NCBI GenBank assembly: GCA_038858525.1
Contig: JAWCFL010000012.1
Coordinates: forward strand, 1-32,000
Length of the DNA: 32,000 nucleotides
Source of the DNA: Candidatus Jordarchaeales archaeon
GTDB taxonomy: Archaea > Asgardarchaeota > Jordiarchaeia > Jordiarchaeales > Freyrarchaeaceae
Direction: 5' to 3'
The notes under the pieces were generated by a model. It searched no databases and was not told the origin of the DNA. It saw only the letters and a program-made list of their open reading frames with translations. This document shows positions 4,061 to 12,912 of the stretch, in pieces; the first letter of the stretch is position 1; each line of letters opens with the position of its first letter. The position numbers were made by a program, and so were the translations under genes.

Positions 4061-5557
<1,497 letters not shown>

Positions 5558-11811: not shown

Positions 11812-12417
11812 ATGAGAAGACTGAAGCGAGGTGTACTGATAGTCTTTGAGGGAATAGATGGTGCTGGAAAGACCACTCATGCCAAGTTGCTTGAGGAATG
11901 GTTGAGGAAAGAAGGGTATGTCGTATCGCTGACTAAAGAGCCGACGGACGGAGAAATAGGCTCTCTAATTCGTGGGCATTTGCGAAGAAAGGATTTTCAT
12001 CCAGCTACTTTAGCTCTCCTGTTCGCGGCTGATAGATTGGAACACACGGAGAAGGAGTTAAAGCCAAGGATAGAGTCGGGTGAGATCATCATCTCGGACC
12101 GCTATGTTGAGTCATCCATCTGTTACCAAGCAGCTGACGGCGTGGATGCAGAGTGGATTGAAAGCATAAATAAGTGGGCGTTGAGCGCGGACTTAACTAT
12201 CCTGCTCGACGTTGACGTCCAAACTGCCATGAAGAGGATGAAGGATAAAGTGAAAGATAGGTACGAGGAGTGGGGCTTCCTTGAAAGAGTTAGAAAAATC
12301 TACCTTGAGAGAGCTAGAAATAAGGGATACTCGATAATTAACGCTACCTCTCCCGTGATGGAGGTGCAGATTGAAATAAGAAAGCTTGTTGCTTGCCTCA
12401 TGGAAGAAAAACAGTGA
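11812..12417 (+). CDS. tmk: Thymidylate kinase
   Basis: FEGIDGAGKTT P-loop, KEPT, LLFAADR and IISDRYVESS. Confidence 0.95.
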   Translation: MRRLKRGVLIVFEGIDGAGKTTHAKLLEEWLRKEGYVVSLTKEPTDGEIGSLIRGHLRRKDFHPATLALLFAADRLEHTEKELKPRIESGEIIISDRYVESSICYQAADGVDAEWIESINKWALSADLTILLDVDVQTAMKRMKDKVKDRYEEWGFLERVRKIYLERARNKGYSIINATSPVMEVQIEIRKLVACLMEEKQ

Positions 12418-12449
12418 AAGATTTATTTCGGACGGATGTGAAATCCGCT

Positions 12450-12510
12450 CTGGCGATGAAGAACTAAAAATCCCTGACCTAGATGAGGAGCGACAGGCGG
12501 TCTGAGCCGT
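12450..12510 (+). ncRNA. Box C/D 2'-O-methylation guide sRNA
   Basis: C box GCGATGA (12453-12459), D' CTGA (12474-12477), C' TAGATGA (12480-12486), D CTGA (12502-12505), with typical spacing. The D guide is complementary at 14 of 15 nt to 16S 5424-5438. Confidence 0.85.
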
Positions 12511-12537
12511 AACAACTATTAAGTCTAAGGTATTCCT

Positions 12538-12912
12538 TTATTCTTCTTCGAGTAGCCTCTTAACTTCTTCTGATACGCGCTTTAAGACCATGAGTATTAG
12601 TCCTAAGTTCGCATTGCTTCTTGCAAGAACCGTTAACAAGGCACTTTCTCCAGCACCCTTAATGATCACGTAGCCTAAGTCTCCCTGCAACAGAACTTGC
12701 TGCAACTTCCCTCTAACTAATTCATTGCTGACCTTTTCTGAGACGCTAAGAATGGCTGATGCCATAGCGGCAACAACAGCGTCGTCGACCTCCTGAGGCA
12801 TGGCTGACGCTATTGGGAGCCCCTCCGTGCTGACCACCGCGCTAGCCTCTATGCCGGGGGTTGTAGCCTCCATGTTTCGAAGCAGCTCCAAAAGTTCATC
12901 GATCTTTGTCAA
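12538..12912 (-). CDS. Roadblock/LC7 (MglB-like) domain protein
   Basis: PGIEASAVVSTEGLPIASAMP..VAAMASAILS..GDLGYVIIKGAGESALLTV, the classic roadblock pattern. Confidence 0.9.
   Translation of the reverse strand: MTKIDELLELLRNMEATTPGIEASAVVSTEGLPIASAMPQEVDDAVVAAMASAILSVSEKVSNELVRGKLQQVLLQGDLGYVIIKGAGESALLTVLARSNANLGLILMVLKRVSEEVKRLLEEE

Follow-up and report, generated by a model that had tools for sequence, protein, structure and literature searches.

Does the short gap between the thymidylate kinase gene tmk and a gene for a Roadblock/LC7-domain protein in an Asgard archaeon contain an RNA gene, and if so, what would its product act on? The question concerns positions 12451-12509 of the window, i.e., of the whole stretch of 32,000 nucleotides (nt) that was analysed (contig JAWCFL010000012.1, positions 1 to 32,000 of the forward strand, from the Candidatus Jordarchaeales assembly GCA_038858525.1). 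A preliminary description had placed in this gap an unannotated box C/D small RNA (sRNA) directed at the 16S rRNA nucleotide that corresponds to C1402 of E. coli. Judged from its sequence and its conservation, 12451-12509 (+ strand) is a genuine gene for a box C/D sRNA of about 59 nt that had escaped annotation: the full anatomy is present, the four-box pattern is unique, and orthologues are conserved. It is also probable that the RNA guides 2′-O-methylation of 16S C1402 (C5428 of the window), as predicted from its pairing with this rRNA. In the following, G000 denotes the genome analysed here, and all other G, f and g numbers denote relatives, families and genera in the archaeal phylum that was sampled (151 genomes).

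Architecture of the sRNA gene

The predicted RNA is closed by a terminal stem of 4 bp, formed by UGGC (12451-12454) and GCCG (12506-12509; these and all following elements are on the + strand), which lies immediately outside a 3-nt bulge and box D. The bulge nucleotide G (12455) is followed by box C (AUGAAGA, 12456-12462), the D′ spacer of 11 nt (ACUAAAAAUCC, 12463-12473), box D′ (CUGA, 12474-12477), the loop CCUAG (12478-12482), box C′ (AUGAGGA, 12483-12489), the D guide of 12 nt (GCGACAGGCGGU, 12490-12501), and box D (CUGA, 12502-12505). Both spacers are within the range of about 10-12 nt of archaeal C/D sRNAs (PMC7994747). The C/D boxes and the terminal stem would be expected to fold into a kink-turn. 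The complete four-box pattern was found only once in the 2.09-Mb genome.

Box C departs from the consensus RUGAUGA at a single position, the A at position 5, and the G016 orthologue has the canonical AUGAUGA. Box C′ is likewise canonical (AUGAUGA) in the G003 orthologue. Boxes C, D′ and C′ were located with an alignment to the Rfam family sR1 and with an alignment of the orthologues (box D′ also by its sequence), and the placement of the boxes is fixed by the sR1 alignment together with the orthologues that have AUGAUGA at the same places. All four boxes had been recognised in the preliminary description, but its limits for boxes C and C′ were 3 nt too far 5′. Box D is invariant in all nine aligned orthologues and varies in more distant relatives found with the covariance model described below (CCGA in f4, CUAGA in f12). 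Box D′ is kept in 4/4 sequences of the same genus, is displaced in the alignment by 1-2 nt in the 5′ direction in G004 and genus g3, and is not present in G016.

An Rfam scan by E-value of positions 12300-12650 aligned about 10 archaeal C/D families end to end over 12452-12507, all of them below threshold. The best match was sR1 with 19.5 bits and an E-value of 0.006 (gathering score 45). The scan of the window at gathering thresholds returned the 16S rRNA only and did not call the sRNA.

Pairing with the decoding-centre strand of the 16S rRNA

The 16S rRNA gene is at 4061-5556 of the window. The D guide pairs at 11 of its 12 positions with 5424-5435 (+), the predicted target strand, which corresponds to A1398-C1409 of E. 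coli. The numbering, including the equation of C5428 with C1402, rests on G5418, which we take to be E. coli G1392. The sole non-pair is A12495 opposite C5430 (C1404). The guide nucleotide at N+5, i.e., the fifth from box D, is G12497, and it forms a Watson-Crick pair with C5428, the predicted site of 2′-O-methylation; the earlier application of the D+5 rule had arrived at the same nucleotide. The guide had been described as a 15-mer, GGAGCGACAGGCGGT (12487-12501), that pairs with 5424-5438 (ACCGCCCGTCGCTCC) at 14 of 15 positions. This count is correct, but it includes three bases at the 5′ end that are part of box C′; the guide proper has 12 nt and the usable duplex 11 pairs of 12. The 16S target stretch is identical in G000, G001, G002, G004, G006 and G008.

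How often would such a match arise by chance? A Watson-Crick match of 10/11 anywhere in the 16S rRNA was reached by 94 of 5000 shuffled guides (1.9%) and by 47 of 5000 random genomic 11-mers (0.9%), and the match on its own is only suggestive. In their rule for predictions, Dennis et al. (2015) allow one mismatch and two G:U pairs and no bulges, and the sRNA-16S duplex lies within these bounds. Pairing of the sRNA with the 16S strand 1398-1409 is well supported by the sequences, and under the criteria of Dennis et al. (2015), methylation of C1402 is predicted for this organism.

At guide position 12, G002 and G004 have an A and G016 has a C, and compensatory changes in the rRNA were considered; this was rejected, as the 16S rRNA keeps C1409 in all three genomes. 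Position 12 of the guide is therefore unconstrained.

For the D′ spacer ACUAAAAAUCC, no match of at least 10/11 was found inside the 16S rRNA of G000 or the 16S and 23S rRNAs of relatives, and such matches occurred only in flanking DNA of the fetched loci. No target was found among the tRNAs extracted with ARAGORN, a screen that is incomplete with only 5-11 tRNAs. The D′ spacer is probably an orphan guide.

Conservation in the phylum and covariation with the target

If the RNA is functional, its guide should be kept in relatives. A BLAST search with an 81-nt region found the sRNA in all three other members of the genus as well as in the sister genus, and in part in genomes outside these two. 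Families f1 and f2 share the gene order PAC2(−)/tmk(+)/sRNA(+)/roadblock(−)/M24 peptidase(+), so that orthologues downstream of tmk, which the preliminary description had named as a check, do exist; in G016 (f8), the sRNA lies between PAC2 and roadblock. Conservation of boxes and guide had been named as a further check. An alignment of nine orthologues shows little or no variation in the boxes, the stem and D-guide positions 2-11, and these guide positions are strictly invariant in the six f1/f8 genomes. The D′ spacer varies even between species of the same genus, the flanks cannot be aligned, and the tmk protein encoded next to the sRNA has an identity of only 50-85% among the genomes with orthologues. 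The terminal stem is paired in 97% of the cells across the nine orthologues, and its outer pair switches from U-A to A-U, a compensatory change. A strain variant from a hot spring (run X11) has four differences near the sRNA (12174, 12274, 12279 and 12530) and none within 12451-12509.

A covariance model, R1, was built from the nine-orthologue alignment. The window sequence was included, and therefore, its score of 76 bits, the single match in G000, is circular, whereas matches outside f1, f2 and f8 are independent. R1 matched in 48 of the 151 genomes of the phylum, mostly once each, with two matches in five genomes. Nearly all D guides read from these matches are complementary to 16S 1398-1408 in the register that puts C1402 at N+5. 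Examples are UCGACGGGCGAU (f3), ACGACGGGCGGA (f12), CGAUGGGCGGU (f15), GCGAUGGGCGAU (f20), CUGAUGGGCGGG (f5), ACGACGGGCAGU (f17), UCGAUGGGCAGU (f4) and CGAUGGGCAGU (f19). Four weak matches, in G087, G094, G104 and G115, have no C1402 guide and represent either noise or C/D-like sequences of another kind.

The 16S rRNAs of two genomes, G023 (f4; C165:14434-14447) and G104 (f19; C57:19402-19415), have a rare U1400 in place of the near-universal C, and in both of them, guide position 3 is an A. In genomes with C1400, position 3 is a G in most sequenced guides, and the exceptions have their mismatch elsewhere, at position 2 in the three f3 genomes, where an A faces C1399, and at position 1 in G034. 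The comparison covered the genomes with an assembled 16S rRNA and thus lacked G099, G029, G084, G089 and G012. The base at position 1400 stacks on the wobble base of the tRNA. This guide-target covariation of A3 with U1400 is the strongest single item of evidence. Taken together, these results assign the sRNA to an Asgard family that is well conserved and in which the guide and the decoding-centre strand of the 16S rRNA evolve in concert.

These results also bear on the possibility that short motifs assembled by chance, or that the site is a protein-binding or terminator element of tmk and not an RNA gene. The boxes are short, the Rfam scores are below threshold, and half-motif look-alikes with 16S complementarity are frequent in the genome, with 72 at a comparable score. 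The full pattern, on the other hand, is unique in the genome, conservation is selective, the stem covaries, orthologues are syntenic, and both the distribution of R1 matches, mostly one per genome, and the guide-target covariation argue against chance, so that this explanation is very unlikely.

Two groups of relatives have spacers of a different kind. In genus g3 (f2; L031-L035), the D spacer of the orthologue has 14 nt (ACGAUUCGGGCGGU), in which 8 perfect pairs with 16S 1398-1405 precede an insertion of 2 nt. The D′ spacer has 9 nt (UGAGUCCAU) and is complementary to 16S 961-968 at 8/8. In f17, f19 and f22 (L084 of G099, L100 of G029, L092 of G084, and L103-L107 of f19), a conserved D′ spacer, UUCAGCCUUG, is common to Pyrococcus sR60 (RF01309). 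The G099 orthologue scored 34 bits on the sR60 model (E-value 3e-7, gathering score 50) via the common D′ guide. The D guide of sR60 appears complementary to the adjacent 16S region, at about 1403-1414. Both features suggest an old double-guide RNA, the guides of which have slid or been replaced.

A conserved mismatch close to the target nucleotide

The sole unusual feature of the sRNA is the conserved A:C mismatch near the target. A12495 is at guide position 7, opposite C1404 and two nt from the target nucleotide. Several observations at and around this position, together with some of a more general kind, weigh against a guide for C1402 methylation. An A is present at position 7 in all five f1 genomes (two genera) and in G016 (f8), and C1404 is retained in the 16S rRNA of the f1/f8 genomes wherever it is assembled, so that the mismatch is uncompensated. 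In f21, the A is opposite C1403, and the 16S rRNA keeps C1403. In the f9 orthologues L077 (G046), L073 (G128) and L075 (G146), the D guide is ACGACGGACGGU, which has an A at N+5 opposite C1402, and the 16S rRNA of G046 retains this C1402. The accepted rule is that the N+5 pair must be Watson-Crick (Lui et al. 2018), and therefore, the f9 guide should abolish methylation of C1402, so that pairing rather than methylation may be under selection. The duplex formed by the sRNA of G000 also lacks the nine continuous Watson-Crick pairs that the rule of Lui et al. (2018) demands. No Rfam family attains its gathering score on the sRNA. Finally, a 23S rRNA was not found anywhere in the 63-contig assembly of G000, which makes it unscreenable as a target in this genome.

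The mismatch is no recent lesion. The sister family f2 has a G at the mismatch position, but with the adjacent 2-nt insertion (CGAUUCGGGCGGU). For f21, compensation by a U1403 was considered and ruled out by the unchanged C1403 in the 16S rRNA.

Would a genuine C/D ribonucleoprotein (RNP) that pairs with nascent 16S 1398-1409 without methylation, or with poor methylation, explain these observations better? It would act as a folding chaperone or assembly checkpoint that keeps the strand single-stranded until late in the maturation of the 30S subunit. The conservation of uncompensated A:C mismatches at guide positions 7 (f1/f8), 6 (f21) and 5 (f9), with the rest of the duplex kept, fits such a role, and a similar role has been proposed for Nanoarchaeum sR13 on the same region (PMC5389701). 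A further likeness is found in Pyrobaculum, where conserved guide-16S pairing with a conserved mismatch at N+5, including sR25 at 16S C1368, was read as interaction without methylation (Lui et al. 2018). The mismatch of sR25 is at N+5, whereas that of the Jordarchaeum sRNA is at N+7, and N+5 is affected only in Asgard f9. By its number, C1368 may lie in the same region as C1402. In G000, however, N+5 forms a Watson-Crick pair, the mismatch lies between runs of six and five contiguous pairs, and published prediction criteria accept one internal mismatch. Several sequenced family members have no internal mismatch over positions 2-11, some of them with one G:U pair (f12, f15), and the site is methylated in Pyrococcus abyssi and in eukaryotes (PMC7005279). 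A chaperone that methylates poorly or not at all is thus rather unlikely, albeit a rival to be taken seriously.

A bolder version holds that the A opposite C1404 (here), C1403 (f21) or C1402 (f9) is itself a selected feature, that the sRNP mainly clamps the decoding-centre strand during 30S assembly, and that it maybe leaves one cytidine of CCC1402-1404 free for base modification. We regard this as distinctly unlikely. If true, the sRNA would be an archaeal analogue of the eukaryotic presenting small nucleolar RNAs (snoRNAs) snR4/snR45 or of assembly snoRNAs.

In its narrowest form, the sRNA would keep C1404 unpaired for a base-modifying enzyme, as eukaryotic snR4/snR45 do for acetylation by Kre33. 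The nucleotides C1403-C1404-G1405 form a CCG motif, and archaeal Nat10 prefers CCG. The mismatch is exactly on C1404, and at the equivalent nucleotide of P. abyssi, near the 2′-O-methylcytidine (Cm) Cm1376, a base modification was reported, tentatively 5-hydroxymethylcytidine (hm5C1378), as well as an unknown modification in some other archaea (PMC7005279). Against this, the Nat10-type GNAT domain PF13718 was not found in G000 (92.7% complete), and the A is shifted to C1403 or C1402, or absent, in other lineages. We know of no archaeal precedent for a presenting sRNA, and the proposal deserves very little credence.

The conserved A could also point to a different target, i.e., another RNA that has a U facing it, for example the 5′ end of the 23S rRNA (GCCGCCUGGUG in the congener G002) or an RNA that is absent from the incomplete assembly. 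The G002 guide CGACAGGCGGC indeed forms 9 Watson-Crick pairs and one G:U pair of 11 with nucleotides ~18-28 of the G002 23S rRNA, with A7 paired to a U, and the missing 23S rRNA of G000 leaves room for such a target. The orthologue of genus g3 also fits the 3′ end of the 23S rRNA at 11/11 with two G:U pairs; by a rough estimate of our own, chance alone would produce about 0.1-0.3 matches of this quality in 4.6 kb of rRNA. The site at the 23S 5′ end, however, lacks conservation: G004 has GCCACC, which results in two mismatches, and its guide is unchanged. The 10-mer CCGCCTGTCG, which has a U opposite A7, is no commoner than a reversed control in five genomes, and two further copies of it in G000 were not called as tRNA genes. 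The 23S pairing of genus g3 has a G:U pair at N+5, and the phylum-wide pattern and the A3/U1400 covariation favour the 16S site. Another RNA as the true target is highly improbable.

Known guides and enzymes for the same nucleotide

Guided methylation of C1402, the reading preferred here, would concern a well-known site. By numbering, Cm1402 of E. coli is equivalent to yeast Cm1639, human Cm1703, Arabidopsis Cm1645 and P. abyssi Cm1369/1376 (PMC11542601, PMC7005279). In P. abyssi, Cm1376 of the 16S rRNA was seen by cryo-electron microscopy and by liquid chromatography-mass spectrometry (PMC7005279 Tables 3-4; PMC11542601 Table 2). Cm1402 contacts the P-site codon (PMC2831307). Very few rRNA ribose methylations are, like this one, common to bacteria, archaea and eukaryotes; it is made with a protein enzyme in bacteria and with a guide RNA in archaea and eukaryotes. 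Bacterial RsmI, which together with RsmH yields m4Cm1402 (N4,2′-O-dimethylcytidine), places the same 2′-O-methyl group on the same nucleotide at the P-site/mRNA contact. It is a stand-alone protein that acts on the assembled 30S subunit without a guide RNA, and it was reported to be absent from archaea (PMC2831307).

The preliminary description had named U43 and snR70 as the eukaryotic guides, and methylation of the same site via these snoRNAs is documented (PMC11542601, PMC2831307). It had left out the archaeal precedents, i.e., the Cm in P. abyssi and guides in Sulfolobus, Methanopyrus and Pyrococcus. The C1402 guide is already catalogued in other archaea, and the Jordarchaeum RNA adds a member. 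Sulfolobus acidocaldarius sR122 and Methanopyrus kandleri sR114, which are supported by RNA-seq, have the guide core GAUGGGCGG for the same 16S strand with N+5 on C1402 (PMC4644070 Additional file 1). Exactly this core is carried by Asgard members of f15 and f20. Sac-sR122 and MKAsR114 have their C1402 guide in the 5′ half, upstream of box D′, whereas that of the Asgard sRNA is in the 3′ half, upstream of box D. Their duplexes have a U:G pair at G1405; the Jordarchaeum guide has C-G there and the A:C mismatch at C1404. For Pyrococcus and Sulfolobus, the archaeal guide reported to address the counterpart of the yeast snR70 target is sR12 (RF01147), which was already compared with SNORD43/snR70 (PMC3511168). 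The sR12 model scored 18.2 bits on the Asgard sRNA (gathering score 38), with the C/D′ half of sR12 aligned to the C′/D half of the Asgard RNA.

Is the sRNA then a relative of U43 and snR70? SNORD43 (U43) and snR70 (Rfam clan CL00059) use the same enzyme system (fibrillarin, a Nop5-type and an L7Ae/Snu13-type protein), and their target nucleotide is the one predicted here. In comparison with them, the Asgard sRNA is compact, with about 59 nt and symmetric C′/D′ boxes. No SNORD43 or snR70 match was obtained with Rfam at E≤10 for the sRNA or at E≤5 for eight orthologues. By its predicted target, the sRNA would function like U43/snR70, as had been proposed, but common descent and membership in clan CL00059 are unsupported by these searches. 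Convergence on a short guide is plausible (PMC3511168). The finding adds a C1402 guide gene to a Jordarchaeum genome and shows a guide that is widespread in the sampled Asgard phylum, keeps its genomic location in at least two families, and evolves together with its target. It provides material for the question of whether U43/snR70 descend from an archaeal guide (PMC3511168); an Asgard guide leaves this question unanswered, because the guide is also present in Sulfolobus, Methanopyrus and Pyrococcus. A small oddity, the conserved A:C mismatches, bears on how much pairing a C/D RNP needs.

Promoter, transcription and RNP proteins

Is the gene equipped for its own transcription, or is it transcribed with tmk, as had been suggested earlier? 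A putative archaeal promoter at 12416-12428 (+) consists of the purine-rich GAAAGA, which resembles a transcription factor B recognition element (BRE), and the TATA-like TTTATTT. It lies upstream of the predicted 5′ end, at a distance of about 26 nt, and overlaps the stop codon of tmk. Each of the ten orthologous loci examined has TTTATTT or TTTATAG, preceded by GAAA, at an equal distance from GGCGAUGA. The conserved element argues against dependence on co-transcription, and the sRNA gene most likely has its own BRE/TATA promoter, as far as function can be deduced from these motifs, with read-through from tmk as a further possibility. In one metatranscriptome library, contigs span 12250-12478 and 12450-12878, with no strand or end information and with possible carry-over of DNA. 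They are weakly indicative, i.e., compatible with transcription of the locus, and were not counted as proof.

The protein partners are encoded in the genome. Genes for fibrillarin (PF01269, E-value 2.7e-97) and Nop5 (PF01798, E-value 3e-66) are adjacent on contig C17 (33266-34718), and a gene for L7Ae (PF01248, E-value 7.3e-30) is on contig C2 (66442-66714). By analogy with known archaeal C/D RNPs, the C/D boxes and the 4-bp stem would form a kink-turn and the C′/D′ boxes a k-loop. L7Ae would bind both motifs and recruit a Nop5 dimer with two fibrillarins. The 12-nt spacer upstream of box D would pair with A1398-C1409, the P-site/decoding-centre strand atop helix 44, and the ribose of C1402, opposite the fifth guide nucleotide from box D, would be placed in the active site of fibrillarin and converted to Cm.

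A second locus with similar features was noticed in G000 at C5:51266-51324 (−). It consists of the half-units UGAGGA-GAUUGACCUACU-CUGA and UGAGGA-GAUGCAUCUCCU-CUGA, 37 nt apart, and the spacers match the 16S rRNA at 11/11, G:U pairs included, at nucleotides ~1159-1169 and ~1002-1012 as numbered from the start of the 16S. It is likely a second C/D sRNA of this genome.

The locus and the genome

The upstream neighbour of the sRNA is tmk (11812-12417, +), the product of which matches the thymidylate kinase family PF02223 with an E-value of 1.4e-49. The convergent downstream neighbour (12538-12912, −) encodes the Roadblock/LC7-domain protein (PF03259, E-value 7.7e-18). The gap between the two genes has 120 nt and contains no open reading frame of at least 40 amino acids. 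The host is an Asgard archaeon, in line with the earlier assignment; among named genomes, the nearest relative of its tmk is that of Candidatus Jordarchaeum sp. DNA of the locus was found in hot-spring metagenomes among public sequencing runs.

The assembly of G000 comprises 2.09 Mb in 63 contigs and is 92.7% complete. Its 16S rRNA gene is solitary, and the 16S and 23S rRNA genes of relatives are likewise unlinked: in G002, they are on separate contigs, and in G006, a closed genome, 30 kb lie between them. A 21-mer, TGATGATTGAGAGGTTG(C/T)TGA, is present in 15 copies in G000, 7 of which lie less than 500 nt from a contig start (e.g., C6:471-491, C21:264-284, C37:140-160 and C57:131-151), and it probably belongs to a repeated element at which the assembly breaks.

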